Of a stretch of DNA of 64,000 nt, positions 32,336 through 48,504 are shown piece after piece (position 1 is the stretch's first letter; each line of letters opens with the position of its first letter). The notes beneath the pieces are model-generated. The model searched no databases. It was given only the letters and a program-made list of their open reading frames with translations, and was not told where the DNA came from. Position numbers and translations under genes: made by a program. Origin of the DNA: Nitrospirota bacterium (lineage in GTDB: Bacteria; Nitrospirota; UBA9217); the NCBI GenBank assembly GCA_049793155.1, contig JBARBN010000228.1, forward strand, positions 14,644 through 78,643. Reading direction: 5' to 3'.

Positions 32336-32338
32336 ATG

Positions 32339-32793: not shown

Positions 32794-32832
32794 CATGGTG
32801 ATGAACGTTCGATGAAAGTTCAGTTAATTTAT
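32794..32832 (-). promoter_or_regulatory. Direct-repeat array X2 (TGATGA-type)
   Basis: CATGGTGATGAacgtTCGATGAaagtTCAGTTAATTTATC. Confidence 0.4.
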
Positions 32833-32853
32833 CGCAGATACATTTATCACTCC

Positions 32854-34692
32854 TTACGAAAAATGCTTTCTGCCGCGGAATAACACAAGACACAAGACAG
32901 CCGCTAAGAATGCAAAACCAGCCGGGGAAACTGCTGGCACCGGTGTGGCGGTCTGAATTGCGGCAAAGGTTGCCTCGACAGTGTGCGCGGAGGTGACAGC
33001 GGCAATAGTATAGGTGAATGTTCCAACCGGATATTCAACTGCCGATACTGATGAGCCGTTATCCTTGAGAGCGACGAGTGTATACCCTGTCAACGGCTTG
33101 ATGGTAAAGAAGGCGCTGCTTCCATAATTGGCAGTCGGGCTGCTGGGCGTATTGGAGCCGCCCAGGGAGTTGGTGACCGTACCCACAAGGGTATAGCTGG
33201 TAATCACGGCGCCGCAGTTTGCCGTACTCCCTCCGTTCTGTCCAGTGCAGGTCCAGTACCATGGACCGGTTCCGGTAACTGTTGACGGGGTGCCGGCGGA
33301 ACAAAGGCCGGTTGTGGGTGCTGTGGTATAGGTCTGGCCGTTCGCGCTGCCGCACAGGCCGTTGATCGGGGGCGGCAGCCCCAGACTGGCTGCGAGATTA
33401 AGACGGGGTTTGACGATCGAATTGCGCGGATCGGTTATGGGAACCCCGTTCGTCGTCATGCGCGCTGTAGTCTGGTCAAGCGAGTCTGTAGGGAAAGCAG
33501 CCCTGAGTATGGCCACCGCGCCTGCCACGTGGGGTGATGCCTGCGATGTCCCTCCCATGGTAATGTTGGCCGCGGTGATCAATGCCCCCGGCGCCACCAT
33601 GGTCAGAAACGAGGCGCTGTTCGAGAAGCAGGTGACCTGATCTGCCGTTGTCGTAAAATCGGTGCAGATACCCCAGTTCAGTCCTCCTACATTGCTGTCA
33701 TAAACCGCGCCCACAGACACGACTCCCGGCGTGCAGGCAGGGCTTGCAATGCCGTTCGTATAGGCATCGTTGCCGGATGCCGCCACCGGGAGGATGCCTG
33801 CCGATCGAGTGTTATTGAGCGGCGTGACAAAAGGGTTGGTATGACTGTTGCTGCATGGGGCGGCATAGTTGACATCGTCACCCAGGCTCATATTCAGGGC
33901 GACGATATTGTATGCGCTTTTATTGGTAATGGTCCAATTGATTCCGGCAAGGACCCAGTTGGTGTTCGAGGACCCGTTGGAAAATACGTTGATCGCAGCG
34001 ATTCGGGCGCCCGGAGCAACTCCGGCCACGATCCCGGCAACATTAGTGCCGTGATTGTTCGGATCGGTATTCAGCGTAAGGTTATTGCCGGTCACATCCA
34101 CAGAGGCGGCAACTTTACAATCTGAAGGAACTCCCGGCGCAGAGCATGAACCGAAAGCTGCGAGGGTATAGTTGATCCCGGTGTCGATGACCGCCACCCC
34201 CGAGCCGCTCCCGGTAAAGCCGGCCTGAATTGCCTGAGGCTGATTGATGAGGGGCAGACTTTGGGTTAATGAAGGATAGATAGGACGATTTTCATAGACC
34301 GCCACGACCTCGGGCCGCGTCAGGAAACGTTCGAGGGCCGGACGACTTTTGAATCGAATAAAGGACATGGGGAGATGGCTATAGTCCTGAACAAGCTCGG
34401 CTTCGCCGGGCAACATCACTGCCTCGGCCCGCTGCTTGATCTCCCGGTAGCGGTCCGCCCTGAAAGAAAGGATGGCATCATCATCGTGCGGTAGATGAGC
34501 ACGGTCCCTTCGGGCTGTTGCCTCTGTTTCAACATCGCGATCATCATAAAGAACGATCACGTCCTGCGGGACACCAGCCGCCAGACTGTCCAGCACACCC
34601 TGGGGAAGGGCCGGCGCGGCGATTGCGGTCAGCGACGCGGTGCAGCAGATCGTTGCGATGGCGTATATAACGAGACGTCTGAGGATACACAA
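32854..34692 (-). CDS. Subtilisin-like serine protease (peptidase S8) with a C-terminal PEP-CTERM-like sorting signal
   Basis: Catalytic triad contexts VAVIDTGI (Asp), NNHGTNVAGIVAG (His) and GTSQASPHVAGAVAIL (Ser). Signal peptide. The C-terminus ...ATPVPAVSPAGFAFLAAVLCLVLFRGRKHFS carries the sorting tail. Confidence 0.8.
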   Translation of the reverse strand: MCILRRLVIYAIATICCTASLTAIAAPALPQGVLDSLAAGVPQDVIVLYDDRDVETEATARRDRAHLPHDDDAILSFRADRYREIKQRAEAVMLPGEAELVQDYSHLPMSFIRFKSRPALERFLTRPEVVAVYENRPIYPSLTQSLPLINQPQAIQAGFTGSGSGVAVIDTGINYTLAAFGSCSAPGVPSDCKVAASVDVTGNNLTLNTDPNNHGTNVAGIVAGVAPGARIAAINVFSNGSSNTNWVLAGINWTITNKSAYNIVALNMSLGDDVNYAAPCSNSHTNPFVTPLNNTRSAGILPVAASGNDAYTNGIASPACTPGVVSVGAVYDSNVGGLNWGICTDFTTTADQVTCFSNSASFLTMVAPGALITAANITMGGTSQASPHVAGAVAILRAAFPTDSLDQTTARMTTNGVPITDPRNSIVKPRLNLAASLGLPPPINGLCGSANGQTYTTAPTTGLCSAGTPSTVTGTGPWYWTCTGQNGGSTANCGAVITSYTLVGTVTNSLGGSNTPSSPTANYGSSAFFTIKPLTGYTLVALKDNGSSVSAVEYPVGTFTYTIAAVTSAHTVEATFAAIQTATPVPAVSPAGFAFLAAVLCLVLFRGRKHFS

Positions 34693-34901
34693 TGCAATCT
34701 CCTAACCTGGACAAACCGGAAAAGCTCTTAGCCACAAAAGTCACAGAAAGCACAGAGAAAAGCTTTTTTTATAAATCAAATCCTTTTTAAAAAAACTATG
34801 TGTCTTATGTGCATTCTGTGGCAAAATATTCGCGACCCGGATCAACATCGCGAAGAGGCCGATTTGCCGCAATCGCCGTATCAGGTGTTGTTTCGAATTG
34901 A

Positions 34902-35216
34902 TCATGGTTCGATGATCAATTTGCCAACGGGTTCATCCGTAGGAAATTCTATCTGTGCAGCGAATCCTTCTAGAATTCTGAGAAACGCTTCCTGCTTATC
35001 CCGCCCTTCAACCTGCCAATAGGCGTGCGCGATATGCCTCATCAAGTCTGCAATCATGATCCCATAAGCCGCCGGGTCTTTCCAGGCGTCGGCTCTGACC
35101 GTAACGTAAGGAGCGCCATCAACATACCAGACGCTGAATAGCTCGAAGGCATCCGCCGCTTGAGTAGTCTTGTTCGGTGCGGGCAATGCCTTCATTTTCG
35201 GAATCACTGATGCCAT
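34902..35216 (-). CDS. Hypothetical small protein (104 aa)
   Basis: Intact ORF with coding-like composition: WYVDGAPYVTVRADAWKDPAAYGIMIADLMRHIAHAYWQVEG. A direct-repeat array lies about 135 nt upstream. Confidence 0.45.
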   Translation of the reverse strand: MASVIPKMKALPAPNKTTQAADAFELFSVWYVDGAPYVTVRADAWKDPAAYGIMIADLMRHIAHAYWQVEGRDKQEAFLRILEGFAAQIEFPTDEPVGKLIIEP

Positions 35217-35351
35217 GTCTCATCACCTTTTCGGTATGCATGCCGGATGCTGCAGGGGGCATCGTATGTGGCGCCCCTTCAATAGGCCTTACTGTTCCAT
35301 AACTGCAAAAGATTTATAATTAATGCAATGCACGCGTCACCCTATCAGTTG

Positions 35352-35395
35352 ATTGTTACAAGGTTATGAAGGACAGGTTAATTTATAATTAATTT
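35352..35395 (-). promoter_or_regulatory. Direct-repeat array C upstream of 34902..35216
   Basis: gaTTGTTACAagg TTATGAAGgac aGGTTAATTtat aATTAATTT. Almost identical in architecture to array D. Confidence 0.5.
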
Positions 35396-35412
35396 TTCGT
35401 TGCACAGGTTTA

Positions 35413-36456
35413 CTAAATATTTTCCGGAGCATTGATAACTGCTTTTCGCCGATAGCGGATCATGTAAATCAACAGCAGTAGAGGGAAGAGGTATTGCCCG
35501 ACTGCGATGAGGGTCAGGTCCATTGTTCTGGCGGATGTGTAATTAAAGTACGCCAGCAAAACATTGTCAATCCGGTGAAAAAGATGGATGACAAAAAGGA
35601 GCCCCAACCCCGCGGCGAGCCCCTTGATTTTCATTGCCCACGGTACTGAGCTAACAGCAAGGACCAGCGACGTAAAGATGACAATGCTGAAGGTTTCATA
35701 GTAGACGGTGGTTTCCTGCGCGAGGCCTACATGGTGATCGAAGAGAGAAAAACCCAGGACCATAAACCAATCCAGGAACCGGATATACCCGTGATGGACC
35801 TTCATCCATACAAGAAATAGACCGCTGGATATCAGCACAAAGCGTACAAAAAACCACGCTGCTTTCATGGGCATGCCCTTGTTCGACTCTTCCCGGTCGA
35901 TCCATTTCAGCCACAGGATGCAGGCCAGCAGGACAAATAACATAGTGAATACCTGGCCCAAATACACATGAAAAACCTCAAAGAGCCCCCGGTCATACCG
36001 ACTTACCATGAAGGTGAGTGCCAGCCGGAACAGGTTGCCCATATAGAGTAAGGGGATTCCCATTGCAAGACCGGTTGTCTTCTGTCGCGCCGTAGCGGGA
36101 TGAAAGATAACGAAGCTCAGGAAAAGGCCCGTTGTGAAGAGCGGAGTGCACTCGGGGATGATCTGGAACGCCAATGCGCCTTCCGATACCGTGTCGTTGA
36201 CAGTCGATGCGGGAATGCCGAAAGCATTCAGGACCAGGACCAGGGTCGCCGCAACGTGTTCGTTTATCGGCTTTGTGAAAGACGGCGGCAATGCGTTAAT
36301 GATCGCATAGATCGCAATGCAGGAAAGGGCGAACGCAGCGGCAAAGCGAAAACTACGCGACCGGATCATATTCGATATTAAAGATCCGAGAGAATCGCCT
36401 TTTTTTTCGGCGGCCTTCTGTTTCTCATGTCGATGCTTTGATTTCTGTTTTGCCAT
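35413..36456 (-). CDS. Exosortase (EpsH/Xrt family transpeptidase)
   Basis: About 8 TM helices. A conserved Cys sits in IIPECTPLFTTGLFLSF (exosortase E-C-[ST]-G/P-like motif) and Arg residues in FRLALTFMVSRYDR. It shares the window with five proteins carrying matching C-terminal sorting tails. Its start is 3 nt from the upstream stop. Confidence 0.6.
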   Translation of the reverse strand: MAKQKSKHRHEKQKAAEKKGDSLGSLISNMIRSRSFRFAAAFALSCIAIYAIINALPPSFTKPINEHVAATLVLVLNAFGIPASTVNDTVSEGALAFQIIPECTPLFTTGLFLSFVIFHPATARQKTTGLAMGIPLLYMGNLFRLALTFMVSRYDRGLFEVFHVYLGQVFTMLFVLLACILWLKWIDREESNKGMPMKAAWFFVRFVLISSGLFLVWMKVHHGYIRFLDWFMVLGFSLFDHHVGLAQETTVYYETFSIVIFTSLVLAVSSVPWAMKIKGLAAGLGLLFVIHLFHRIDNVLLAYFNYTSARTMDLTLIAVGQYLFPLLLLIYMIRYRRKAVINAPENI

Positions 36457-36458
36457 AC

Positions 36459-37859
36459 TTAACGTGTCCGCGGGTCATCCCCTTTCAGCGGAACGGTCGA
36501 CAAGTCAAGGGCATTGCTCAGGTCATTGGCAGCTGCGTCGCGCGTACCCAAAGGTGCCAGGTTCCATCGGCGTTCGATGAACTTCAGAATGGATGTCGTG
36601 TCGTACTGCGTGTGATCGACAAATCCTTTCTTTGCAAAGGGTGAAATGATGATCGCCGGGACTCTCGTACCGGGGCCCCAGCGGTCGCCCTTCGGCGGGG
36701 CCACATGGTCCCACCGGCCGCCGTTCTCGTCATAAGTGATGATGATCACGCTGTCGTTCCAATAAGGACTTTCCTGCACCGCCTTGACGAGTTCAGCCAC
36801 ATGCAGCTGTCCAAAAAGGAGCGCTGAATACCCGGGATGTTCGTTGTAGGAGCCGATCGGCTTGATGAAGGACACAGACGCCAATGCGCCTTTATTCAGG
36901 TCCGTGAGAAAGTCATTCTCGTCCTTAAGATGCGCTGCTTTGGCGACCGTATTGTCGGAAAAATTTGCGAAATAGGCAAAAGGCTGGTGATGGAACTGAA
37001 AATCTCCGGCCGGCTTTCCGGCGACGGCGTCGTTCCATCCTCCGGAATACCAGGTCCAGGAGAGGTTCTTCTCCGTAAGCCGGTCTCCGATAGTCGGCTG
37101 GGTCTGCGGCGGAACAAGATCTTTTGCGCCTTTCGGATGAGGCTGGTTTACCGAGTAAGAGGTATTGACGACGAAGCCATCAGGCGTCACAGCGCCGTCT
37201 TCTTCGAGGATCCCTTTCGAATCAAGCTTTGCTCTCATCAAGGGCGGTGCATCAGGCCAAACCGGCGTGCAGGCGCAGATGAGCCAGAAATGATTTAGGA
37301 ACGAACCGCCGAATGCCGCCTGAAAGAAATTGTCGGCGAGCGTGTATTGCCTCGCCAGCTTTCCCTCGGGCAGGTCGCCGGCATCAACATAGCTCATGAC
37401 GAGCCCTGGATTGTCACTCCAGGTCGCGAACTTGTCCATTTTGCCTCCGTCTATCTGGAGTTGGTTCTGGTAGAAGCGATGAACGAGGTCCCCCGTTTTT
37501 TCGTTCCCGGGAACATACCGGGCCAGATCATACGGTTTTGCCGGCATCTGCTCCGGAAATCGAAGATCGGGCACTGGAGGCTTCAGACAGGTATCCAACG
37601 GCCTCTTAAGAGTTTTAAGCGGCCTGCCCTCTTTGTCAATCTGGTTCAACGCATCTCCCGCATTCGCGATCCCGTTCGCGCCGGGAAAATTCCCATAAAG
37701 GCCGTCGAAGCTCCAGTTCTCCTGGTAGATGACGATGACATGATTGATCTTTGACTGGAGCGCTGTCGTAGTTGTATCTGCGGCCTGCACGAGCGTTGTG
37801 CAGAAAATCGTCGCTGCGGATAACGCAAAAATCCTTACGAACCGAGAGAGAAAAGGCAT
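36459..37859 (-). CDS. Phosphoesterase-family protein (PlcN/AcpA-type non-haemolytic phospholipase C / acid phosphatase), secreted
   Basis: Signal peptide. INHVIVIYQENWSFDGLYGNFPG is the PF04185 phosphoesterase N-motif. Immediately upstream of the exosortase and in the same transcriptional direction. Confidence 0.7.
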   Translation of the reverse strand: MPFLSRFVRIFALSAATIFCTTLVQAADTTTTALQSKINHVIVIYQENWSFDGLYGNFPGANGIANAGDALNQIDKEGRPLKTLKRPLDTCLKPPVPDLRFPEQMPAKPYDLARYVPGNEKTGDLVHRFYQNQLQIDGGKMDKFATWSDNPGLVMSYVDAGDLPEGKLARQYTLADNFFQAAFGGSFLNHFWLICACTPVWPDAPPLMRAKLDSKGILEEDGAVTPDGFVVNTSYSVNQPHPKGAKDLVPPQTQPTIGDRLTEKNLSWTWYSGGWNDAVAGKPAGDFQFHHQPFAYFANFSDNTVAKAAHLKDENDFLTDLNKGALASVSFIKPIGSYNEHPGYSALLFGQLHVAELVKAVQESPYWNDSVIIITYDENGGRWDHVAPPKGDRWGPGTRVPAIIISPFAKKGFVDHTQYDTTSILKFIERRWNLAPLGTRDAAANDLSNALDLSTVPLKGDDPRTR

Positions 37860-37977
37860 ATCTCCTCCTTAATTTAAAGCTATTGTACTAGCCGATAGTC
37901 GGCGACCGGTAGGTTTAGTTGGAAGACATGGATCATTCGCAGCCGATCATGTTTCTTATTCATGCGTTATGCTACGC

Positions 37978-38022
37978 TATCAGAATATTGTTACAGATTT
38001 ATGAAGGGCAGGTTAATTTATG
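37978..38022 (-). promoter_or_regulatory. Direct-repeat array D upstream of the phosphoesterase-exosortase operon
   Basis: taTTGTTACAgat TTATGAAGggc aGGTTAATTtat gATTAATTC. It lies about 120 nt upstream of the phosphoesterase start. Confidence 0.5.
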
Positions 38023-38052
38023 ATTAATTCTGTTGAAGAAAAGGGATTATAA

Positions 38053-38077
38053 TAAAAAAAAAAGGAGCTGCAAAAAA
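38053..38077 (-). terminator. Intrinsic terminator downstream of the transposase remnant
   Basis: GGAGCT-gcaaaaaaccgat-AGCTCC. In the minus direction it is followed by U10. Confidence 0.45.
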
Positions 38078-38132
38078 CCGATAGCTCCCCGAACATGAAC
38101 AAGCAGACGCCGCGCCTCATTAATTCGTACTG

Positions 38133-38303
38133 TTATGCCGCGCAATCACGGTCCTTGTGCCATTCCTTTCCATGCGTGTGATACCGCCTCAGCCACTTAT
38201 AAAACCATTGTTTAGACCGGTTGAGACTGATATAAATGCTCTTCGGCGATTCGCCCTGCAGGATGTAGCGCCGAACTGCTGCTTTTCTGATCTCTTCTTC
38301 CAT
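38133..38303 (-). pseudogene. IS630-like transposase N-terminal helix-turn-helix fragment (remnant)
   Basis: MEEEIRKAAVRRYILQGESPKSIYISLNRSKQWFYKWLRRYHTHGKE then stops. A transposase helix-turn-helix, but no DDE domain follows. Confidence 0.45.
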
Positions 38304-38441
38304 CACATGCTCCTTTGAGACGGCCGGCAGTGACAACCAAAGCCGTTCACTACCGGCACGCCTCACCCGCCCTATGACGGGAAATCCTCATAACTCTGAA
38401 GTTGAATGCTTTTATCCGTTTATTCGCTACTTCGCTGCGCA

Positions 38442-41400
38442 CTAAGAATGACGCCGTCTCCGGGATATATATCCTGCCAGCATCGCTACCGTCGCCATCA
38501 TCCCCCATATCCCGAGGGCCGGGACCGAATCCGCCTGCGATGCTGAGATCGTCATCGATCCAGCGGCGCTTCCCTGATAGTTGGGGTCGCTGATCGTCGC
38601 GACCACGGTGTAATTGCCCATGGCGGACGGAGCAGTGGCAGAACCATTGTAGGTCACCGTAACAGCACGTCCGGCAGGATTAGTGGTTACTGTAACACTC
38701 TTGGCCGAGCCGTCGTAGGTGAAGCTCATTGTACCCAGTGTGACAATCGCCGATGCTTTATCGATCGTGTAGGTGCCGCCGGCCAAGCCGGAATAGCCTG
38801 GCTGGGCAACTGTTGCCGAAACGGCGTACGCTCCCGCGTTGACCGGAACAGTGATGCCGCCGTTGTAGGTCACGTTGGTTAATAGTCCCGGCGGAATCGT
38901 GGTCACGCTGACCGGCTTTGCCGTTCCATCGAATGTGGCTGACAATGCGCCGAGAGTCATGATCGCTTCCGTTGTATAGGGCGGTGCGGCAGTGTAGTGC
39001 ACAGAAGACTGTGCGGCAGCGGGTGTCGGTTCCACATTATTGTTACTGTCAATTGCCTGGCTGTAGAACTCGTAATAGCCATAGCCCTGCGAATAATTAA
39101 ATGTTGCCGTATACGGCGCTGTCGTACTGGTTGCAAACTGCGTCCAGGCACTCCAGGATGTGTTGTCCGAGGAATAGCGGTAGTAGAACTTCACTTGCGC
39201 TATGGTCGCGCCGGAGGCCTGCGTATTTATCTGCAATACCGGTCCATTGCTGCCGTACTCCTTGGCGTCAAAGCCATAGCTTGGCGGTGTAGCGTCAGTC
39301 GAGCTTTCAGTTACAGGCTTGACGACAAGAGAGATGAGTTTATTGCCGCCCCACTTGGTCTGGGCAAAGGATGTGACATCCCACTGATACCAGATATTGC
39401 TCGTAGCGGAATCAAGGGTCTGGGTGGAAACTGCAGCTCCGAGAGCCGGTTGGGTGTTCCAGGTAATGCCGGTCTCTGTCCAGGTGTCGTCAGAGCCGCC
39501 ACGTACTTCGGCCGGCATTGGCGCTCCGGCAACCTTCCAGTTCCAGAGCTGGAGATTTGCGCTGGTAATGGTTGCGCCTGCCGGGATTGCGGAAAGATCG
39601 AACCTCAACCAGCCCCGCTCATTGCCGTAGCCGGCTGCGGCGCTTTGTACATACAGGTTAGTGCCGGACCCGTAATTGGTAGTCGGGTTTCCGCTGGCAA
39701 CCTGGGCATCGGCCACTGGTGTGAGGAAGTATGTTCCTGCGCTTGAAGAGGCGGATGCTGTCAGCGTGATTGGTGAGACGGTCGTCCCGGCCGGCGTAGA
39801 GTCTACTCTGGACGAAACAACGGAGGCCTCCGGTAAGCTTGAATTGGTTGTCGAGACGTTATCGCACCGGAACCTCAGCCCGTAGTTCTCCATGGTCGGG
39901 ACACCGGAAACGAGAAGTATATCCCCCACATTGCCAGGGACGGTCTTGTTCGCATAGCCGGTCGCGTCCATGAGCGTTATCGTCTGACCGTTCTGGTCGC
40001 TTACGGAGTTGGCGCCGGCTTTCCTGGCCAGGAACTCGACGTAGTGGTTCTTGGACTGGTCATTCCAGAAAGCGCCAATGGACGACATGAAGGCCGGCTT
40101 AGCCAGGCTGGCGTCGTGGCCGACGATATTGAATTCGACGCCATCGGAGTAGATCCCTTCCTGGTCAACAAATTCCGGGTTGCCGCCGTAGAAACTCCCC
40201 TTGCCCCAGGTTTCGATGATGTCTCCCGGTTTGAGGACACCGGTTTTGAAACCAAGGAAGCTGCGGTACATCTCCTGTTCAGCCAGATGATGCGCCGGAT
40301 TGATCGTACCATCGGCGTTGACCAGGTCTGTCGGGACCTGCTGAGAGCCGCGGCGCGCAAGGGTCTCGGGCGTGGCGCTCAGGAATCGGATGAAGGCGTC
40401 CTCGAAGGTCGTCTTGGTGTCGTTGTCGTTCATCATGGTGACGACCGCGCGGAAACCTCCCGAGAACTCGGTGTTCAGGTGATACCGTGGACCGCCGACC
40501 TGGTAGGCGTTGGCCTGGTCCGAATGCTGGCTCCGCATGAAATCAACGATCCCTTCGCGGCAGAGATAGGTCGAGGTGAGCGGGGCCGTGTCGGCCCAGG
40601 TCCAGTTGGCAGGAGGATGGGCATACATGTAGTTGTTGATCGCCACGGTATAGGTCTGATTCAGGTTGATCGGCTGACCATTGAACTTGACGCTCGCCGG
40701 TGTGCCATCATAGGCGGTCACATCCAGAGCGCTGGAGAAACCGGCGTTCATATTGGTTACCTTCAAAAAATTTACGATCTCCTGACCGCTCATGTTGACT
40801 CGATAGAAAGAGTCGTCGTTCCAGGGGAAGGTCTCGTAGATCTGCAAATAGGTTACCGGTCCGGCGGGGATATCGGCGCGGACACCGCCGCCGGCCTCGA
40901 TGGCGAGATCGGTTTGTCCAAAGAGCTGCTCGGACTTCCAGCGCATGGCGTCGCAGATCCACTGGCCCGCGGTATTGTTGCCGCTCCAGGGGTATTCGTC
41001 CGCCGACCACCATTTCATGTCATTGTCGAGCATCAGGTCGTCGGCAGTGTAGCCGACGACTTCATCCACCGGGTGGCCGGGGTGGTCGTTATTGTATTGT
41101 GTGGTCAGATCATTGAGCAGCGTCTGCACATCCGGGTCGGGTGAGATGTCTGCATCGCGGATCACGTGATTCGTGGCGCTGAAGTACTTGCCCGTGTCGG
41201 TCAACTGCAGTTCGCCGATGTATTTCATATAACTGTTCGCTTCGGTGAAGATCGTTTTGTAATTGAGCATCTCCGGCTGCCAGACGGTGTCGGCAATCGT
41301 GTGCCAGTGCCCGGTGACAACTACCTCGGGGAGTTTGGCCGCTCCGTTATCGGCCAGCACCGGTGCGGTCGGATCGACCAGGGCGCTGTGTCCGCTGTGC

Positions 41401-42947
41401 GCGGCAAGAATGACAAGATCGACATTATTGGGAGCATTGCGCAGCTCATTCACATAGTCGGACATATTGCACACAGCGCTGCCGCTCCATGCGCAGGGAA
41501 CGACTTCCAGGATATCGGCAAGGGTCGGCCCTATTTCCGCCGTATCGATGGTGTAGCCGATGATGCCGATCTTTTTACCATTGATCGTAACGACGTTGGA
41601 TGCGGCGAAGTACGGAAGGTGAGTATTTTTGTCCCGAACATTGACCGAAAGCACGGGTACACCGGAATTCCTGAGCGAGGTCAGATTGCTGATGTAGTTT
41701 ATATCGCGGACATCATGGTTGCCGACAACGACCGCGTCCATGCCGCGTCCGCGCTGGGCATTCAGTTTATTGGAGAGCAGGGTATAGAACATCGTCATAC
41801 TGCCATTGCCGTTCATATCGCCGATTGGGTTTCCCTCGGAGATATCACCTGCATCGATGACCAGCGAGTTCGGTTGAGCCGCGGTAAGCTGCAGCATTTC
41901 GGCGGCCAGGTAGGCCGCACCGCCTACGTCTTCAAACTGGCCGGAACCGGTCCCGTGGGCCGGGATGATCATCTTGTGCGGCGTCACCCGGGCATGGGTG
42001 TCGTTCACGTGGAAGATTGTCAAACCGGCTGAGGTCGCGGTAAAGTTCGCGGTGCAGGACTTGTTGTCCTCCATGACCACGGTGATCGTGGCGCTGCTGC
42101 TGCTCGAACAACCGCTCCACCCGCTGAACGCGGAGTTGTTCCCTGCTGTGGCGGTGATGACGGCGTTGCTCCCCGAGGTATATGGGTTGGCGACACCGGA
42201 TATGGTTCCGCTGCCGTTGCCCGCCGTGGCGGTGGTCAGCGTGTAATTCTGGGTTGCCTGGCCATCGGCAACGGTCCCCTGTATCTCAAAATCGCCGGCC
42301 GTGGTGTTGGCGACATCGAAGATATACCAGGTGCCGCTTGCTCCGCCTCCATAGTTGACTATCCGGAAGGTCACGGCCGTTCCGGCTGGAACGTTTTGTA
42401 ATGCGCTAATCGCTGAGAGGTCAATAGCTGCCAGCGAGGCCCCCGAGGACGCGCTGGAAGAATAGCCTAACGTTGTTATGTCGGCAAAAGCACCTGTCCC
42501 CACCTGGTACTGGAGAACGCCGTTTGCAGGTCCGGTTCCAGAGCGCCGGTAGTCGAATTTGCTGATCGAGCTGAACGAGACCTGCTTGCCGGTGTTAGCC
42601 GTGATCGTGAAGGAGGCAAACTTGTTGTCGGTAACGGCCGCAGCAGCATTTGCACTGTTCCAGGCAACGCCCCCCCAGGCCCGTGCGGCGCCGGAGCCGG
42701 TAATACCGACACCCGAGCCGCGGGTCAGGCCGACGACGGTCAGGTTTGGATCGCTCACCGACGCGGCCAGCGGCGAAGGCCCAAAATTATTGGTACCCCC
42801 GGGGAGGGCATGAACATCAAAGCCCGCCAGGGTGGCCGCGAAAACAGACCCGGCAACCGCCGTCAGCCCGAGGGTAATGATAAGGAAAGCAATTAAAAAT
42901 CTTTTAAGATGGGCTGCAAAGATCCGGTTGCCTGAATGCATGGTCAT
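38442..42947 (-). CDS. Giant (1501 aa) multidomain cell-surface 5'-nucleotidase/metallophosphoesterase with an exosortase sorting signal
   Basis: Signal peptide. InlB-B-repeat-like segment (TLTTATAGNGSGTISGV...AFSGWSGC). Calcineurin-like metallophosphatase motifs HVNDTHAR, DAGDISEG and GNHDVRD. DNRLRE-like domain (LYVQSAAAGYGNERGWLRFDLSAIPAGATITSANLQLW). Two MBG-like repeats. The C-terminus ...SVPALGIWGMMATVAMLAGYISRRRRHS carries the sorting tail. Confidence 0.75.
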   Translation of the reverse strand: MTMHSGNRIFAAHLKRFLIAFLIITLGLTAVAGSVFAATLAGFDVHALPGGTNNFGPSPLAASVSDPNLTVVGLTRGSGVGITGSGAARAWGGVAWNSANAAAAVTDNKFASFTITANTGKQVSFSSISKFDYRRSGTGPANGVLQYQVGTGAFADITTLGYSSSASSGASLAAIDLSAISALQNVPAGTAVTFRIVNYGGGASGTWYIFDVANTTAGDFEIQGTVADGQATQNYTLTTATAGNGSGTISGVANPYTSGSNAVITATAGNNSAFSGWSGCSSSSSATITVVMEDNKSCTANFTATSAGLTIFHVNDTHARVTPHKMIIPAHGTGSGQFEDVGGAAYLAAEMLQLTAAQPNSLVIDAGDISEGNPIGDMNGNGSMTMFYTLLSNKLNAQRGRGMDAVVVGNHDVRDINYISNLTSLRNSGVPVLSVNVRDKNTHLPYFAASNVVTINGKKIGIIGYTIDTAEIGPTLADILEVVPCAWSGSAVCNMSDYVNELRNAPNNVDLVILAAHSGHSALVDPTAPVLADNGAAKLPEVVVTGHWHTIADTVWQPEMLNYKTIFTEANSYMKYIGELQLTDTGKYFSATNHVIRDADISPDPDVQTLLNDLTTQYNNDHPGHPVDEVVGYTADDLMLDNDMKWWSADEYPWSGNNTAGQWICDAMRWKSEQLFGQTDLAIEAGGGVRADIPAGPVTYLQIYETFPWNDDSFYRVNMSGQEIVNFLKVTNMNAGFSSALDVTAYDGTPASVKFNGQPINLNQTYTVAINNYMYAHPPANWTWADTAPLTSTYLCREGIVDFMRSQHSDQANAYQVGGPRYHLNTEFSGGFRAVVTMMNDNDTKTTFEDAFIRFLSATPETLARRGSQQVPTDLVNADGTINPAHHLAEQEMYRSFLGFKTGVLKPGDIIETWGKGSFYGGNPEFVDQEGIYSDGVEFNIVGHDASLAKPAFMSSIGAFWNDQSKNHYVEFLARKAGANSVSDQNGQTITLMDATGYANKTVPGNVGDILLVSGVPTMENYGLRFRCDNVSTTNSSLPEASVVSSRVDSTPAGTTVSPITLTASASSSAGTYFLTPVADAQVASGNPTTNYGSGTNLYVQSAAAGYGNERGWLRFDLSAIPAGATITSANLQLWNWKVAGAPMPAEVRGGSDDTWTETGITWNTQPALGAAVSTQTLDSATSNIWYQWDVTSFAQTKWGGNKLISLVVKPVTESSTDATPPSYGFDAKEYGSNGPVLQINTQASGATIAQVKFYYRYSSDNTSWSAWTQFATSTTAPYTATFNYSQGYGYYEFYSQAIDSNNNVEPTPAAAQSSVHYTAAPPYTTEAIMTLGALSATFDGTAKPVSVTTIPPGLLTNVTYNGGITVPVNAGAYAVSATVAQPGYSGLAGGTYTIDKASAIVTLGTMSFTYDGSAKSVTVTTNPAGRAVTVTYNGSATAPSAMGNYTVVATISDPNYQGSAAGSMTISASQADSVPALGIWGMMATVAMLAGYISRRRRHS

Positions 42948-42971
42948 CCTCCGAAAATAATTGTAAGGTGC

Positions 42972-43448
42972 CTACTCAGCATGGGCCATCACACTCTTCC
43001 GGACGACAGGAACCTGCTCCGGCATGCCCTTGCCCAGCGCTTCTTGCACGATCCTGAGGAGTTCGAACGTGTTCACGGGCTTGATAATGTATTCGAAGAT
43101 GCCTGGATCAACAGCCTTGGAATAACTGTCGATATCACCGTGTTCGACAAGAAGGACCATCGGGACATCGGGATGCTGACGCTTCAGTGCTTCAACTAAT
43201 TCCAGACCGTTTATGCCTGGCAAGCGATAGTCGGTTATGACGAGATCGAACCTCCTGACGCCGAGGATCGAAAAATGGTGCGCTGATGGTGCATCATAAA
43301 AGACAGCGATGCCGTAGCCCTTCCTGCGCAGTACCTCTGACATGTACTTCAAGCGTACATGGTCGTTATCGACCAGGAGGACCGTCTGCTGACCCTCGCA
43401 TGCGGGCGATCCGTCCGGGTCGTGCATACTGTTAAGATGATCATTCAT
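42972..43448 (-). CDS. Single-domain response regulator (CheY-like receiver)
   Basis: VLLVDNDHV...FDLVITDYRLPGINGLELVEALK...PMVLLVEHGD gives the phospho-acceptor Asp context and a conserved Lys region. Confidence 0.75.
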   Translation of the reverse strand: MNDHLNSMHDPDGSPACEGQQTVLLVDNDHVRLKYMSEVLRRKGYGIAVFYDAPSAHHFSILGVRRFDLVITDYRLPGINGLELVEALKRQHPDVPMVLLVEHGDIDSYSKAVDPGIFEYIIKPVNTFELLRIVQEALGKGMPEQVPVVRKSVMAHAE

Positions 43449-43683
43449 GTATTTTTAAAACCTCCCTATGATGCATGCCTCGATTCATTCCGACCGAGTT
43501 CATGATGTTGTCAGTACAGCGACCGGCATCAATCGTCAAATCGAACACCGGAATTCGCTTACGATATAACCCGGACCGGAGTCGAAACCCGGTCCGGGCA
43601 GTGTTCAGCGGAAGTCGTGATCCCCAGTGGCAGCATGGCCTTGATTTAATTTGGAGGGCATTGACTATTTGCTGAAACTCTTA

Positions 43684-44376
43684 TTAGCTCTGTTTTCTTC
43701 TCATTTCTATCAACCCCGCGAGGCCTGAACCGAAAAGCCATACTGCGGCCGGAATCGGGGTGGCAACAGGGTTTGGATCAGGTGTGCCGGCGATAAAGAT
43801 GGTATTGCCGCCGGCATCAGTGGTACGAATGGCCGCAGTGGTAGTGCTCGGATTGGCGGTCATCCTGGGATAGAGGCTGAAGTTTGCCGTTGTTCCATAG
43901 CCGACGAGATCAACGAGGTTGGCGGACGTTGCAACGGTGCTTGCGCCGGTTGCAGTCGTATCGAACAATGCCAGCTTACCCGCGGTAGCGGACAAGTTGA
44001 GACCAGCGAAAGTACCCAGGGTCAGATCATAAGCCGGGTCGGGTGCCGTGCCGACGAGGCCCGTTCCCCGTCCTTCTTGAATGAGAAAATAGCTGTTTGG
44101 ATTGATGATACCGGACAGGTTGTGCGAGTTCGATGGGCCAAAAGTCGTTGTATTGGTAGCACTTGCATACTGGAGGCTGTAGCCGCTCAGATCGATCGCA
44201 GAAGTCCCGTCATTGTACAACTGGACCCAATCGTTGCTATACAGAGGATTAGTACTCGTTGCGCCGCCTCCCCCGTAGATCTGGCTGATGACAAGATCCG
44301 CATGGGCGGACTGGGGCGCTGCCATCAGCATTACCGTGAACATAACTGCTGTCAGTGTTAGCATTACCCTTTTCAT
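43684..44376 (-). CDS. Secreted protein with a VPLPA-type PEP-CTERM sorting signal
   Basis: Signal peptide MKRVMLTLTAVMFTVMLMAAPQSAHA. C-terminus ...VATPIPAAVWLFGSGLAGLIEMRRKQS. Confidence 0.65.
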   Translation of the reverse strand: MKRVMLTLTAVMFTVMLMAAPQSAHADLVISQIYGGGGATSTNPLYSNDWVQLYNDGTSAIDLSGYSLQYASATNTTTFGPSNSHNLSGIINPNSYFLIQEGRGTGLVGTAPDPAYDLTLGTFAGLNLSATAGKLALFDTTATGASTVATSANLVDLVGYGTTANFSLYPRMTANPSTTTAAIRTTDAGGNTIFIAGTPDPNPVATPIPAAVWLFGSGLAGLIEMRRKQS

Positions 44377-44440
44377 TGTACTTCTCCTTTTGTTATTAAA
44401 TTATTCGCCTGGTAGGGCGATAGAACCTGGCAAAATAAAA

Positions 44441-44481
44441 AAACCCGGAGAAGAACCTCAACAGGTTCGTTTTCCGGGTTT
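44441..44481 (-). terminator. Terminator-like hairpin in the leader of the VPLPA-CTERM gene 43684..44376
   Basis: AAACCCGGAGAA-gaacctcaacaggttcg-TTTTCCGGGTTT. In the minus direction it is followed by UUUUUUAUUUUGCC. It sits between array E and the ATG, just after the conserved box GGGCCCTTTGCTGACC. Confidence 0.5.
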
Positions 44482-44552
44482 TCTGTTTCCTTTATAAGGT
44501 CAGCAAAGGGCCCATGTCTGATTACGAATTCTTGCGTATTAAATCATATTTT

Positions 44553-44595
44553 CATTACAAGATGATGAAGGATCCGTTAATTTGCCGTTAAATTA
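44553..44595 (-). promoter_or_regulatory. Direct-repeat array E upstream of the VPLPA-CTERM gene 43684..44376
   Basis: cATTACAAgatgaTGAAGGatcc GTTAATTtgcc GTTAAATT. A TATGAT -10-like element follows in the minus direction. Confidence 0.45.
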
Positions 44596-44937
44596 TCTTT
44601 GGCAGCTGTTAATTTTAACTTGCCTGCAAGTTATCTCCCTTTTCCTTTTAAGAAGTTTGAAGCCCTCTTTCCCCGTGGTATACCCATGGGATAGAGGGTC
44701 AGCATAATGCCGGGCACCGCGCCGGGCAGCCAGATACAGGGAGCATTGCTTCCGATCGCGGCAATGAAATGTAGCTTCTCAGTAAGCTCCAATTCCAGGC
44801 TTTAATACCAATTTCGAACTATTCCATTATTTCTTACTCCCCTATGGTTTTCTCAGTGCGCCAAATATAAGAAAGCAATATGGTCATGCGCTCTGTCAGG
44901 GACGTTTTATTCTCAAACGGGCCGCCTCCCCTCACCC

Positions 44938-46356
44938 TTATATCGGCAGCAGCTTCAGGTTGAACCCCCGCTCGATAAGCCAGGTAAAACCCAGCAGGAA
45001 TATGGCAAGCGACACGCCGATGGTCACTTTTCTGAATTCTAACTTATTTTTGAGCAGGTACAAAACCGGCAGCAGTACCAGGAAGATCATCAATTGCCCT
45101 ATTTCCACACCCAGGTTGAACGAGACCACCGATACCAGCAAATTCGATTTCCCGACGATCAGGTCCTGGAGAACGCTTGCAAAGCCGAAGCCGTGGACCA
45201 GCCCGAACCCGAACGTCACGAGCCAGCGGTAATTCACCTTCTTCTTGTACAGGTTTTCAAGCGCGACAAAGCAAATGGAAAAGGCTATCACCGATTCCAC
45301 GATCCGGGAATTCAGACTAACAACCTGCGTTGCCGCCAGGAGCAGGGTTATGCTGTGCGCTACGGTAAATGCCGTGATTATCTTCAACACTTCCCTGATC
45401 GACAGCCCGATGACGATGAGCGCGAGCAGAAACGCTATGTGGTCGTAGCCCGTCAGAATATGCTCGATGCCGAGCACGATGAATTCGCCTATGTTCGCCC
45501 ATTGGGACCGTTTTGCAGGCATGTTCGCAACAGTATCGGGAGAGGTCGCGGCTGAAAGAGATTTTGATAAAACAGAAAGATTTCTCTCTACTATCCGTTC
45601 GGCCGGAAGCGCCCCGGCAATCCGACGGGAGATTTTTTTTGAGCCGGAATTCAGCGCGTTTGCGATGCCGCTTTTCGCGGCGATTGCAGCCCTGTTTTGT
45701 CCGGCAATATCTTTTATACTGCTTGATCCGACGTTGACAGCGTGGTTGTCAGCTTTCGGCGCTGCGGCGGGCTCCTGTGCAACGCCTTTGACGGACATTT
45801 CCCATACCGGAGCGTTATGGTCAAAGGTGGTCTGCATCGCTGGCGGGGAGAAATCAAAGACCTTTTGCAGTTCAGCTCCTGTTGCCTCGGACAAATATCC
45901 ATAGGCGAGGTTCACGTGCGCATTGTTCGTCTCTTCAAACAATAGGGTGTAATCGATCCTCACAGGATTTACGGGGCTGGTAAAGCTGATATCATTTACT
46001 GACAGCCATATGGTATACAGGTTGCCGCTTCTGACTATCTTGTTTACCTTGGCCGGATATATCTTGCCGGCTACTGCTATGGAAAGTCTTTTGTCTATAT
46101 AAGGCTGCAGTATATCGGTTGCAATGTGCTGCAGTTGCTCATCGGTAAGCGAATCAAGATCAAAATGTCCCTCCTTTATTCCTTTTATTTCCGCTAATAA
46201 AGACGGACCGAGATCTATATTGCCGATAATAGTGTTTTTACCGAAACACCACCTTGAGCCGCCCATGGGCAGGTTGTGCGCGTGAACAGGAACGGTTATT
46301 AAACAGAGCAAACCCGTTATGAAGAATAAGAATAATTTTCTGAACGTCATAAACAC
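44938..46356 (-). CDS. HupE/UreJ-family (Ni/Co transporter-like) membrane protein with an N-terminal periplasmic domain
   Basis: The C-terminal half has HILTGYDHIAFLLALIVIG (HupE/UreJ H-x-x-x-G-x-DH motif) and 6 TM helices. The N-terminal about 250 aa is soluble and follows a signal peptide. Confidence 0.55.
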   Translation of the reverse strand: MFMTFRKLFLFFITGLLCLITVPVHAHNLPMGGSRWCFGKNTIIGNIDLGPSLLAEIKGIKEGHFDLDSLTDEQLQHIATDILQPYIDKRLSIAVAGKIYPAKVNKIVRSGNLYTIWLSVNDISFTSPVNPVRIDYTLLFEETNNAHVNLAYGYLSEATGAELQKVFDFSPPAMQTTFDHNAPVWEMSVKGVAQEPAAAPKADNHAVNVGSSSIKDIAGQNRAAIAAKSGIANALNSGSKKISRRIAGALPAERIVERNLSVLSKSLSAATSPDTVANMPAKRSQWANIGEFIVLGIEHILTGYDHIAFLLALIVIGLSIREVLKIITAFTVAHSITLLLAATQVVSLNSRIVESVIAFSICFVALENLYKKKVNYRWLVTFGFGLVHGFGFASVLQDLIVGKSNLLVSVVSFNLGVEIGQLMIFLVLLPVLYLLKNKLEFRKVTIGVSLAIFLLGFTWLIERGFNLKLLPI

Positions 46357-46405
46357 GAAAATACCTCCTTACTCAGTCCCGAGAGATCGTTCCTGAACGA
46401 AGGAC

Positions 46406-46996
46406 TCAACCTTCTTCAGATGAGAAGTGCATGCTCTTTTCTTTCGCCCACAGGAAAAGGATCAGGCCGGACAGCGCCAGTAAAAAGCTCAGCCCGCTCA
46501 TAGGCGGCAAGCCTCCGTTCCACTTCTGGACATTCAACGTATCTTTTAAGCCCATGGCAAAAAGATGGCCTGCAACCAGGGCGTATGCCAGGGCCGTGAA
46601 AGTCCGCCGAAGGTCCGGCGTCGTTTTGGCGGTGCGCAGGCGCCAGAAACAATAAACAGCCAACGCTCCCATGAGCAGCACCAGTTCTCCGGTCAGGCTC
46701 ATCTTGTCACCGTCAAAGAAATTGACGTAATATCCCTTCGAAAGAATCCCGAGCGAGAGAATGATGTGAACGAACACCAGCTGCGCACATGCATTCGTCC
46801 AGAAACGGGCTGCGTCCTTCTCTTCCCGCATGAGGCAGAGGGCAGCCATAAACATCGCCTCCACCCCCGTCATGCATATCGCTTTGTTCATGATATAGGC
46901 CGGCAGGTGATCCAGGGAAACATGGCCGAACCCGGCATATCGAATGACCGCATAGGCAAGCGTAAACACAAACGCCGTCAGAAATTGTTTGACCAT
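46406..46996 (-). CDS. Hypothetical polytopic membrane protein
   Basis: Five to six hydrophobic helices. No recognisable motif. Confidence 0.4.
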   Translation of the reverse strand: MVKQFLTAFVFTLAYAVIRYAGFGHVSLDHLPAYIMNKAICMTGVEAMFMAALCLMREEKDAARFWTNACAQLVFVHIILSLGILSKGYYVNFFDGDKMSLTGELVLLMGALAVYCFWRLRTAKTTPDLRRTFTALAYALVAGHLFAMGLKDTLNVQKWNGGLPPMSGLSFLLALSGLILFLWAKEKSMHFSSEEG

Positions 46997-47079
46997 TTTG
47001 TTCTCTTTTGTCGACTGTTTCACCATTTTTATCTCCTTTGCCGCAGGTTTTTAAAATATCCTGTCCCCATCTGACAACT

Positions 47080-48228
47080 TCACTCCGCCGTGTCCACGAA
47101 CGGGCACTCCGGGTCGGGAGCGAAGATGTCGCCGGAAACAAACCCGCTCACGGCGCGGCACCCTCCCTTGCAGATCTTGAGATAGTCGCATGATCGGCAG
47201 GGCTCCGGGGCCCGCTCGATCCAGCTGCGCAGACGAGAGAGGTGCTCGGACCCGTTCCACAGCCGGGGCAGGTCTAGAATGCTCTCTTCTCCTGACAAGA
47301 AGGAGCAACCCGCGAACCTGCCGTCGGAGCGGACCCCCACAAGAACATTGCCGGCCTCGCACCCGTAGACCGAAAGCTGCTCCATGGTCTTTTTGTCCGG
47401 CCTATGCCAGCAGAACATCGGAACGAAAGAGCAGTCGATCTTTACCGGTACCCGGTGTTCCAGGGAAAGGCGTCTGATCATCGGATAGAATTCCCGGTTC
47501 TGATCCCGTGTTAATCTCCTGTCAAAATAGTCCTGCTTCCCCCGTCCCTTGGGTTTTAAGCGAAGGAGTTCCACGTCGGCAAGTCCACGCTCCCCGGCAA
47601 AGCTGAGCACGCCGGCCAGTTGATCGAAATTCCGGCGCGTCACGACGCAGTTCAGTCCGACCTTGACACTGGCCTTCAAAAGCAGATCTACCGCTCGCAC
47701 CGCTGCCGCGAGAGCAGCTGGGTCCCGGTCTGTTCCTTCGGGGCTGTCGAGCCCGTCGATACTTACGTTGACCTGACCGAACACGCGGCACCGTGCGGCA
47801 ATTTCATTGGTCATTAAAAATCCATTCGTGGTCAGGTTGGGGACGATGCCGCGGCTGCGCACGTAGGCGGCCAATTCAAAAAAGTCGGGACGCTCCAGCG
47901 CTTCTCCGCCTCCCAGCGCCATGTGGAAAACACCCATCCCGGCCAGCAGGTCCACGGCCTTTCGGAAATCCCCCGTAGACAGCTCGTTCGCATCTTTTTC
48001 CCCCGAATCCATGTAGCAGTGCCCGCACCGCAGGAAACAGGAGTTGGTAACCGAAAAATGGACCTCAAGGGGAGCGGAGAGAAGACCATCTTCGGGTTTA
48101 TCCCACAGGGGGCTGTGCTTATGACCCAGGCTGCGCATGAAGTCTTGGTCCACGTGCACCAGCACCGGAGGATCTTCTAGGGCCAGTATCCCGCCGAACG
48201 ATTCGAACCGATGCTTCATAACGCTCAT
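47080..48228 (-). CDS. Radical SAM / SPASM-domain enzyme (peptide-maturase-like)
   Basis: CFLRCGHC is a Cx3Cx2C radical-SAM cluster motif. The C-terminal SPASM cysteines are CSFVPMFC...CEAGN...CSF and CRSCDYLKICKGGC. An N-terminal extension of about 60 aa precedes the core. Confidence 0.8.
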   Translation of the reverse strand: MSVMKHRFESFGGILALEDPPVLVHVDQDFMRSLGHKHSPLWDKPEDGLLSAPLEVHFSVTNSCFLRCGHCYMDSGEKDANELSTGDFRKAVDLLAGMGVFHMALGGGEALERPDFFELAAYVRSRGIVPNLTTNGFLMTNEIAARCRVFGQVNVSIDGLDSPEGTDRDPAALAAAVRAVDLLLKASVKVGLNCVVTRRNFDQLAGVLSFAGERGLADVELLRLKPKGRGKQDYFDRRLTRDQNREFYPMIRRLSLEHRVPVKIDCSFVPMFCWHRPDKKTMEQLSVYGCEAGNVLVGVRSDGRFAGCSFLSGEESILDLPRLWNGSEHLSRLRSWIERAPEPCRSCDYLKICKGGCRAVSGFVSGDIFAPDPECPFVDTAE

Positions 48229-48479: not shown

Positions 48480-48504
48480 CTTATGCTCATTCTTCCCCGG
48501 TGCG

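Follow-up and report, generated by a model that had tools for sequence, protein, structure and literature searches.

The window analysed here is a stretch of 64,000 nucleotides from a Nitrospirota bacterium of the UBA9217 lineage (GenBank assembly GCA_049793155.1, contig JBARBN010000228.1, positions 14,644 to 78,643), and its minus strand carries a large gene that we refer to as BIG. BIG is best read as a multi-domain, sorting-signal-anchored extracellular phosphoesterase, one of a widespread family. We consider it somewhat probable that the protein is a Pho-controlled surface or matrix phosphoesterase, sorted by exosortase H (XrtH), that scavenges phosphate from nucleotides or nucleic-acid-derived substrates. 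This reading builds on the integrity of the gene, the identities of its domains, its catalytic motifs, a triad of modules kept across the family, linkage to XrtH and a shared operator regulon, all of them observed; the enzymatic activity and the substrate are predictions.

38442..42947, minus strand: BIG, 1501 aa (probably 1499 aa), a multi-domain protein of the 5'-nucleotidase family, from the open reading frame (ORF), profile searches and homologue searches.

The ORF was present on the minus strand exactly as an initial annotation of this DNA had described it. Its third codon, an ATG at 42941, is preceded 6 nt upstream by GGAGG, and the homologue P0001, 96% identical to BIG, is annotated at 1499 aa; the true start is therefore probably this ATG, which gives 1499 aa. 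Homologues numbered 403 in a database search with a limit of E<=1e-10. The best 120 of these, all above 1400 bits, were used for the presence counts given throughout, for which the window segments were mapped onto each protein. Full-length homologues at 96, 84 and 73% identity were collinear with BIG at 98-100% coverage. Among the loci of relatives and homologues compared with the window (L001-L025; P numbers denote homologous proteins), the independent metagenome contig L024 was collinear from 44592 down to 37667, with 93.5% nucleotide identity over 6.9 kb. Compared with the collinear homologues and this second assembly, BIG showed no frameshift and no gene fusion, the artefacts that the initial annotation had named as fatal to its reading. 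The BIG ORF is real and intact. It divides as follows (all on the minus strand).

42837..42947: Sec-type signal peptide, aa 1-37 (...AGSVFA/ATLAG), from direct reading of the sequence.
42258..42836: N1, an accessory beta-jelly-roll with a CBM4/15/22-like fold, in 71/120 homologues.
42033..42245: divergent InlB B-repeat (Flg_new_2), accessory, in 37/120, from a profile search.
41268..42032: dinuclear metallophosphatase domain with the motifs NDTH, DAGD, GNHD, AHSGH and GHWH, from profile and motifs.
40503..41267: linker and 5'-nucleotidase C-terminal substrate-binding domain with GGGVR and FPWNDD, from profile and motifs.
39843..40463: family-specific OB-fold region, apparently two barrels, from structural matches.
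39222..39728: CBM96/DNRLRE, an obligate core module, from a profile match.
38973..39212: Ig-like beta-sandwich, aa 1246-1325, in 120/120, from conservation and a weak Big_7 match.
38541..38960: two tandem MBG_3 domains, accessory, in 75/120, a likely spacer, from a profile match.
38445..38528: IPTLxxWG-type tripartite sorting tail (VPALGIWG, hydrophobic helix, RRRR), from sequence reading and profile.

Domain annotation by profile searches confirmed every domain that had been named at the outset. The InlB B-repeat was matched at E 4e-11 when its segment was scanned alone, the calcineurin-like phosphatase (Metallophos) at 32 bits against a Pfam cut-off of 21.5, the DNRLRE segment at 107 bits against 34 (NF033679) and, as CBM96 (PF24517), at 123 against 26, and the MBG_3 pair at 148 against 25. 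The CBM96 segment is also matched by the family profile to the solved structures 8wab and 7vbo. That first list was incomplete, as it had missed the jelly-roll resembling a carbohydrate-binding module (CBM) at aa 38-230, the OB-fold region at aa ~829-1035 and the Ig-like domain.

The domains fall into an invariant core and optional additions. Residues 306-1325, which span the metallophosphatase, the 5'-nucleotidase C-domain, the OB region, CBM96 and the Ig-like domain, were found in 120/120 homologues at mean identities of 58-73%, and across phyla the core is 60-75% identical. N1 (71), the InlB repeat (37) and MBG (75, in variable copy number) come and go among the same proteins. The combination, which had been described as unusual for a phosphatase, is therefore shared by a large family. 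The most divergent members, at 38-45% identity, retain 5_nucleotid_C, the OB region and CBM96, and in three of them CBM96 lies at the N-terminus. The triad of 5'-nucleotidase, OB region and CBM96 is thus conserved independently of domain order. Its persistence despite the relocation of CBM96 argues that CBM96 and the OB region act together with the catalytic unit and not as a stalk.

The family is carried by Geobacterales, Desulfuromonadales, Syntrophobacterales, Nitrospirota, Methylobacter, Methylophilus and Chthoniobacter flavus. Identities of ~50-75% across Desulfuromonadia, Nitrospirota, methylotrophs and Verrucomicrobiota were observed, and cross-phylum values of 50-70% suggest horizontal spread. 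The window itself is closest to Geobacteraceae-type genomes, with a metagenome-assembled genome of Geoanaerobacter as best species representative (73%) and synteny with Geomesophilobacter sediminis, a cultured carrier that encodes P0052. Database names of members are generic ('DNRLRE domain-containing', 'MBG domain-containing' or 'CBM96 family'), and a literature search found no experimental characterisation of the family.

The catalytic unit is the best-defined part of the protein. Metallophos is accompanied by 5_nucleotid_C at 64.4 bits against a Pfam cut-off of 23.6, and the metallophosphatase motifs, for which profile support had been asked at the outset, are all five present. The motifs H-x-ND-x-HAR, D-x-GD-ISEGNP, VVGNHDVR, H-x-G, GHWHT, the C-domain GGGVR and ET-x-PW-x-DD were at least 90% invariant in 50-60 homologues. 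They align to the solved 5'-nucleotidases 2z1a and 3ztv, GGGVR corresponding to GGGIR of 2z1a. Searched against solved structures, the family profile matched Thermus thermophilus 5'-nucleotidase, UshA, NadN and CD73 at E 5e-24 to 1e-12, and structures of the CpdB/YfkN-N type ranked lower, at 5e-7 to 4e-5. SoxB, CpdB or NadN identity of the catalytic domain was rejected on scores. We therefore place BIG, on profiles and motifs, in the UshA/CD73 branch of the 5'-nucleotidase superfamily, which supports the initial description of a secreted multi-domain enzyme of this superfamily. At the level of sequence, the fold and active site are established and the substrate is not. No Pfam or NCBIfam match for an EEP or SNase nuclease domain was found in BIG.

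Three of the remaining modules bear on what the enzyme might bind. The OB region matches no Pfam or NCBIfam model, and a HMMER search against 1.84 billion cluster representatives returned only 65 proteins, 48 of them below 1e-30, with no twilight tail; the region is specific to the BIG family. CBM96 is known as an alginate-binding family found in lyases of anionic polysaccharides, and its founding member binds its polyanion through Lys/Arg residues (PMC9971899). N1 was predicted with high confidence as a CBM-like jelly-roll (predicted local distance difference test score 98), its nearest folds being CBMs that bind xylan, glucan and pectin. Outside the BIG family, N1 was found in proteins of Verrucomicrobiota, Pseudomonadales and Bacteroidota that are unrelated to BIG. 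Of five such proteins scanned, three carried Endonuclease_NS (DNA/RNA non-specific endonuclease), one combined PhoX, EEP and Endonuclease I, and one an S8 protease with LTD; the pattern suggests that N1 is a module, not described before, that goes with nucleases and phosphatases. Giant verrucomicrobial proteins (L013 9887..16378, and others in L014, L017 and L018) combine N1 with PhoX, EEP and Endonuclease I, or with Endonuclease_NS and TIG.

At its C-terminus BIG reads VPALGIWG-MMATVAMLAGYIS-RRRRHS, a tripartite arrangement of motif, hydrophobic helix and basic cluster that recurs in Geobacter-type homologues. Other homologues have tails typical of their lineage, for example DVPLPxWA in beta- and gammaproteobacteria, and some end instead in a non-membrane module (...PLQFSNPSNARINFTPVTYQE). 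Classical PEP-CTERM, MYXO-CTERM and LPXTG models gave sub-threshold noise for the tail. The purple-acid-phosphatase-type protein encoded at 50422..52179 (minus strand) ends in ...VPLQFSNPNNVKINFNPVTYQE, and nearly the same module replaces the membrane tail in P0008, P0018, P0022, P0031 and other homologues; as a shared C-terminal module of extracellular phosphatases, it may serve alternative anchoring or secretion. Two neighbouring genes bear on the sorting of BIG.

35413..36456, minus strand: exosortase H (XrtH), the IPTLxxWG-CTERM-specific type, TIGR04177 90 bits against 86.
32854..34692, minus strand: S8 subtilase with an IPTLxxWG-like tail (VPAVSPAG...RGRK), from direct reading of the tail.

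The XrtH gene lies about 2 kb, or two genes, downstream of BIG and begins 2 nt after the end of an AcpA-type acid phosphatase gene. Its product also exceeds the cut-off of the general exosortase/archaeosortase signature (51 bits against 23), and its homologues, with identities of up to 94%, bear the name 'exosortase H (IPTLxxWG-CTERM-specific)' at JGI or 'exosortase H' at NCBI. In L001, L002 and L003, genes resembling XrtH (78-87 bits) are found at distances of 2-8 kb from the BIG homologues. The linkage of BIG, XrtH and the S8 gene recurs in L003 (S8 at 13600..15864) and in L025 (S8 at 19606..21444), where the order is BIG, helix-turn-helix (HTH) ORF, two genes, XrtH and S8; the L003 subtilase tail reads VPACSSWG...KRR. 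The exosortase anchor proposed initially was thus essentially right, and is refined here to the XrtH/IPTLxxWG variety; BIG would be processed by XrtH and attached at the surface. The S8 subtilase is probably, judged by its tail, a second XrtH client; alternatively, BIG could be its substrate, to be processed or released by it. In Methylomirabilis, a demonstrated S-layer protein carries an IPTL-CTERM tail (PMC8671808), a precedent that is consistent with surface display of BIG. No functionally characterised XrtH client was found in the literature searched.

Regulation was approached through Pho-box-like operators. The E. coli consensus CTGTCAT-N4-CTGTCAT was weakly enriched in the window (13 matches against 4.4 expected), and it was refined to a local variant derived from six window sites. 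The refined pattern, TCAT-N5-TGTAAY, gave 9 matches against 0.15 expected, all intergenic and all on the gene strand, and a position weight matrix (PWM) built from these sites gave, at a score of at least 30, 11 matches in the window against 0 in 10 shuffles. Independent support comes from three extra exact matches, from PWM sites outside the training set, just upstream of pstS (58172) and at 32830, and from sites in L008, L024 and L025.

27078..59556, minus strand: operator sites at 28270, 31036, 32598, 32830, 35395, 38030, 44594, 49715, 53319, 58172 and 59556.
37990..38030, minus strand: Pho-box-like operator of the AcpA-XrtH unit, from pattern and PWM.
44554..44594, minus strand: Pho-box-like operator of four half-sites at 11-bp spacing, then a -10-like element; it heads the cluster of LTD gene, response regulator and BIG, 192 nt upstream of the LTD gene.

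The operators are in register, with three to four direct half-sites at 11-bp spacing (TTTCAC / TTAAT / GTCAT / TGTAAY) and a -10-like element ~10 nt downstream. Half-sites at 11-bp spacing followed by a -10 element are the architecture of PhoB-dependent promoters, as in E. coli Pho boxes, and we infer that PhoB is the regulator. Operators precede pstS, AcpA-XrtH, the genes of the LTD protein, of the S8 protease, of a hybrid response regulator-histidine kinase and of a pentapeptide-repeat protein, and several unknown genes. The flanks of sites 35395 and 38030 are almost identical, which gives the impression of a duplicated promoter. In relatives an operator occupies the same position as at 44594: it precedes the LTD gene in L024 and the LTD partner in L008, and in L025, which lacks the response-regulator insertion, it precedes the small gene ahead of BIG. 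In L004 the exact pattern alone gave three matches (3618, 3662 and 5961). A sigma-70 promoter scan between the LTD gene and BIG found none, and BIG would be co-transcribed by read-through from the operator upstream of the LTD gene.

BIG is surrounded by a conserved island of phosphate-starvation genes, which shows synteny with relatives. PstS, PstC, PstA and PstB scored above curated cut-offs in the window, where PhoU is also encoded, and further genes of the island are listed here.

36459..37859, minus strand: AcpA-type acid phosphatase, TIGR03397 467 bits against 363.
50422..52179, minus strand: purple-acid-phosphatase-type enzyme, from a profile search.
28356..29615: PstS-like binding protein, from a profile search.
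60516..63495, minus strand: OlsF-like bifunctional ornithine-lipid synthase (394 bits, below the cut-off of 620) and a flippase-like protein, adjoining the pst operon.
43684..44376, minus strand: LTD protein of 230 aa with a PEP-CTERM-type tail, a conserved upstream partner of BIG, from profile search and locus comparison.
42972..43448, minus strand: stand-alone response-regulator receiver, 24 nt upstream of BIG, not conserved in most relatives.

The OlsF-like and flippase-like pair fits a change to phosphorus-free lipids when phosphate is limiting. BIG homologues in relatives are surrounded by PhoA, purple acid phosphatase, PPK, pyrophosphatase (PPase) and PAP2. The cluster that contains BIG runs in the order operator, LTD gene, response regulator, BIG. 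Its small upstream partner is conserved in L001, L002, L008, L010 and L024, and in many homologues BIG itself carries a fused N-terminal LTD in place of the separate partner, a gene-fusion link between the two.

Other genes of the window were also recorded. A block at 44938..49629 (minus strand) encodes a 374-aa protein, a radical SAM enzyme, a 206-aa membrane protein and HupE/UreJ_2, with the Pho-box-like site at 49715; it is syntenic with Geomesophilobacter sediminis upstream of BIG (L022 574..7294). A cyclic di-GMP-I (c-di-GMP-I) riboswitch at 30549..30628 (minus strand; Rfam RF01051, 53.9 bits against 35) sits between the Pho-box-like promoter at 31036 and the gene (29700..30482) of a secreted protein of 260 aa whose tail is of the PEP-CTERM/VPLPA type, which suggests joint control of this protein by phosphate and c-di-GMP. 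A two-partner secretion system at 13998..25993 (minus strand) comprises a ShlB/FhaC-type TpsB (24392..25993) and a 3464-aa TpsA with a TPS domain and DUF3739 (13998..24392). In a further block (9202..13989, minus strand), an unusual MotA/ExbB protein fused to DUF2341 and LamG (12166..13989) is accompanied by TonB (10911..11720) and a Porin_5 outer-membrane protein (9202..10914).

Two features between BIG and AcpA had led to the proposal of a mobile or accessory region marked by an IS630-like remnant and a terminator immediately downstream of BIG.

38133..38303, minus strand: HTH_23 ORF of 56 aa, like a transposase N-terminus, from a profile search; conserved in L024 and L025.
38053..38089, minus strand: intrinsic-terminator-like hairpin, a 7-bp stem then U10, after the HTH ORF and just before the AcpA operator.

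The supposed remnant is the HTH_23 ORF, which matches the IS630 model over positions 2-41 only (16.5 bits against a cut-off of 100, E 0.0045) and has no DDE part. The terminator is not immediate: none was found directly at the BIG stop codon, and the only convincing one lies ~350 nt past it. The HTH_23 ORF is kept in position and at the same length in L024 (6307..6474) and L025 (14877..15047) at 93-96% amino acid identity, which makes it a fixed element and not a sign of recent mobility; L025 BIG is only 84% identical, and across the three genomes the ORF is better conserved than its neighbours. By this pattern the fixed element possibly has a functional role, and it may be a domesticated transposase HTH that serves as a small regulator. 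A tblastn search of plasmids with the HTH_23 ORF gave no match. The GC content of the region is 0.55-0.575 against ~0.53 for the window, with no compositional sign of a foreign island. Mobility of the region is thus weakly supported, given that the HTH ORF is conserved in place and the island is syntenic with relatives.

In the mechanism that we propose, BIG would be a Sec-exported enzyme, probably induced by phosphate starvation, whose catalytic part would act as a dinuclear-metal phosphoesterase of the UshA/CD73 5'-nucleotidase branch. The OB barrels and CBM96/DNRLRE, here with N1 and with LTD in trans, would hold the enzyme on polyanionic extracellular material such as fragments of extracellular DNA (eDNA) or RNA, or acidic matrix polymers. 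XrtH would recognise the IPTLxxWG tail, remove its membrane-spanning part and leave the enzyme attached at the surface or matrix, with the Ig-like and two MBG domains as a short spacer. The surface enzyme would free orthophosphate from nucleotides or nucleic-acid-derived phosphoesters, and the nearby PstSCAB would import it.

Several observations weigh against this reading. With respect to the substrate, NCBIfam equivalogs were all far under their cut-offs (UshA 82 against 600, NadN 63.5 against 436, SoxB 42 against 550, CpdB 32 against 486), so that a substrate is not assignable from them, and the window showed no gene for a dedicated nuclease. With respect to binding, Foldseek matches of the OB region were all at E > 0.001, and all BIG domains are net acidic (the OB region -8), unlike a classical DNA-binding surface. 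OB and CBM folds bind oligosaccharides too. With respect to sorting, the tail scored just below threshold for IPTL-CTERM PF18203 (20.3 bits against 20.8) and below it for TIGR04174 (9.9 against 20.5). With respect to regulation, no operator lies directly before BIG: the operator-bearing promoter is separated from it by the response-regulator gene and a 235-nt spacer between the LTD and response-regulator genes, which holds a strong hairpin (-33.6 kcal/mol, z -2.3) with a weak U tract. It is for this reason that Pho control of BIG itself is something we infer. Neither the exact pattern nor the PWM gave a match in L007 or in the more distant loci L001-L003, L009-L011 and L022.

The alternative that survives best is phosphate scavenging from another polymer, in which the modules would dock on acidic or phosphorylated polysaccharides, teichoic-acid-like polymers or nucleotide sugars, and the enzyme would cleave phosphoester or phosphodiester groups in a UshA- or GlpQ/PhoD-like manner. 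Mining of acidic or phosphorylated polysaccharide or of nucleotide sugars is credible because the modules are acidic, which argues against direct DNA binding, and because CBM and OB folds can bind glycans. The glycan-binding folds nearest to N1, the alginate-binding character of CBM96 and the best NCBIfam match, UshA, a UDP-sugar hydrolase, all point the same way, and the phosphate-island context fits equally well. However, N1 is recurrently fused to nucleases and not to glycoside hydrolases, nucleic-acid binders dominate the structural matches of the OB region, LTD partners are typical of nucleases of the ExeM/Xds type, and no glycan-degrading genes flank BIG. On this evidence we regard another polymer as an unlikely source of the phosphate, and retain nucleotides or nucleic-acid-derived substrates as the preferred one.

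A more ambitious version of the preferred reading takes the triad as a polymer-directed 'phosphate-mining' machine, displayed by exosortase H, in which the tandem OB region and CBM96 would thread or hold extracellular nucleic acid or some other phosphodiester polymer while the 5'-nucleotidase active site acts directly on its ends, by exonucleolytic cleavage or end-dephosphorylation. We put this forward as a speculation with a rather low chance of being correct. If true, the polymer-end activity would be one undescribed for the 5'-nucleotidase fold, and BIG, along with the S8 protease, would give XrtH its first clients with an interpretable function.

The initial annotation had instead viewed the non-catalytic modules as a passive, adhesin-like stalk that displays an ordinary 5'-nucleotidase on an exosortase anchor far from the surface. 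MBG, the InlB B-repeat and Ig-like modules are indeed typical of large surface proteins, a C-terminal anchor places the C-terminal modules between membrane and enzyme, and the XrtH linkage agrees with such a display. The part of this model that stands is a short spacer, since about three small domains (Ig-like and two MBG) lie beside the anchor. A long stalk is not supported: MBG is present in two copies here and is optional, and a check for homologues lacking C-terminal modules, suggested at the outset, found it absent in 45/120. Nor does DNRLRE/CBM96 belong to the stalk, since this module and the OB region are universally kept and a CBM96 moved to the N-terminus is incompatible with a spacer. 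Core identity of 60-75% across phyla points to selection on binding surfaces and not on length. A purely passive role for these modules is therefore doubtful, and less likely still than the polymer-end activity.

Lower again we place a role in signalling or matrix remodelling instead of nutrition, in which biofilm structure or dispersal would be controlled through the breakdown by BIG of extracellular ATP or adenosine nucleotides, of cyclic or linear dinucleotides, or of eDNA ends. The main effect of ExeM and Xds is on the architecture of biofilms (PMC6085458), a stand-alone response regulator lies directly upstream of BIG, and the island holds the c-di-GMP-I riboswitch and several PEP-CTERM matrix-type proteins. 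Yet the dominant context, and the one with statistical support, is phosphate acquisition, with pst-phoU, three further phosphatases and an operator shared with pstS, and the response regulator is not conserved beside BIG in relatives, which makes this role improbable. Finally, the idea that mis-assembly or a frameshift joined separate genes into BIG has practically no standing and is already refuted by the collinear full-length homologues in many independent assemblies, by the collinear second assembly and by the core kept in 120/120 homologues.

Surface and extracellular phosphatases set how sediment and aquifer bacteria, in this case relatives of Geobacter, gain phosphorus from organic matter and eDNA. 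The locus offers an unusually clean, testable exosortase set, namely XrtH, two neighbouring putative clients with tails of the IPTLxxWG type, one with an easily assayed predicted activity, and a shared phosphate-starvation operator that would be expected to turn on all of them. Recognition of the conserved 5'-nucleotidase-OB-CBM96 triad and of a compact module of XrtH, client and Pho operator are the useful outcomes.

Known systems resemble BIG in part, and among characterised ones ExeM/Xds and YhcR/YfkN come nearest. UshA, CD73 and NadN share its two-domain catalytic fold and metal-binding motifs and are its best matches among solved structures, but they are only ~25-30% identical and are ~550-aa periplasmic, lipoprotein or GPI-anchored enzymes that lack OB, CBM96 and a sorting tail. 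PEP-CTERM/exosortase systems with XrtH share the tripartite tail and an adjacent exosortase above the XrtH cut-off; BIG differs from XrtH clients in its VPALGxWG variant, which falls just under hidden Markov model thresholds. YhcR and YfkN of Bacillus subtilis are, like BIG, very large (~1200-1460 aa), surface-displayed phosphoesterases of the 5'-nucleotidase family with a C-terminal sorting signal and an adjacent sorting-enzyme gene. YhcR carries OB folds as well. Both are surface nucleotidases anchored by the sortase YhcS, and yhcR adjoins yhcS (PMC3222306). Unlike BIG, they belong to a Gram-positive LPXTG/sortase system with attachment to peptidoglycan. An SNase domain is present in YhcR, a duplicated 5'-nucleotidase/CpdB unit in YfkN, and neither carries CBM96, N1 or MBG.

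ExeM of Shewanella oneidensis combines a signal peptide and LTD with a pair of OB folds, an EEP phosphoesterase domain and a tail of the hydrophobic/RRRR kind; phosphate starvation induces it, and the OB region is one that it cannot do without (PMC6085458). Together with Xds of Vibrio cholerae, it shares with BIG a Gram-negative host, a signal peptide, LTD (in trans or fused in the case of BIG), two OB-type folds, a catalytic phosphoesterase domain that depends on metal and, at the C-terminus, a tripartite tail on which a dedicated intramembrane sorting enzyme acts. In contrast, BIG uses the 5'-nucleotidase fold (Metallophos and 5_nucleotid_C) and not EEP, and IPTLxxWG with exosortase H and not GlyGly-CTERM with rhombosortase; its CBM96 is obligatory, and its OB region has no detectable sequence similarity outside the BIG family. 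Judged by its domain content, with no EEP or SNase domain, and by its different sorting system, BIG is not a member of either the ExeM/Xds or the YhcR/YfkN family.

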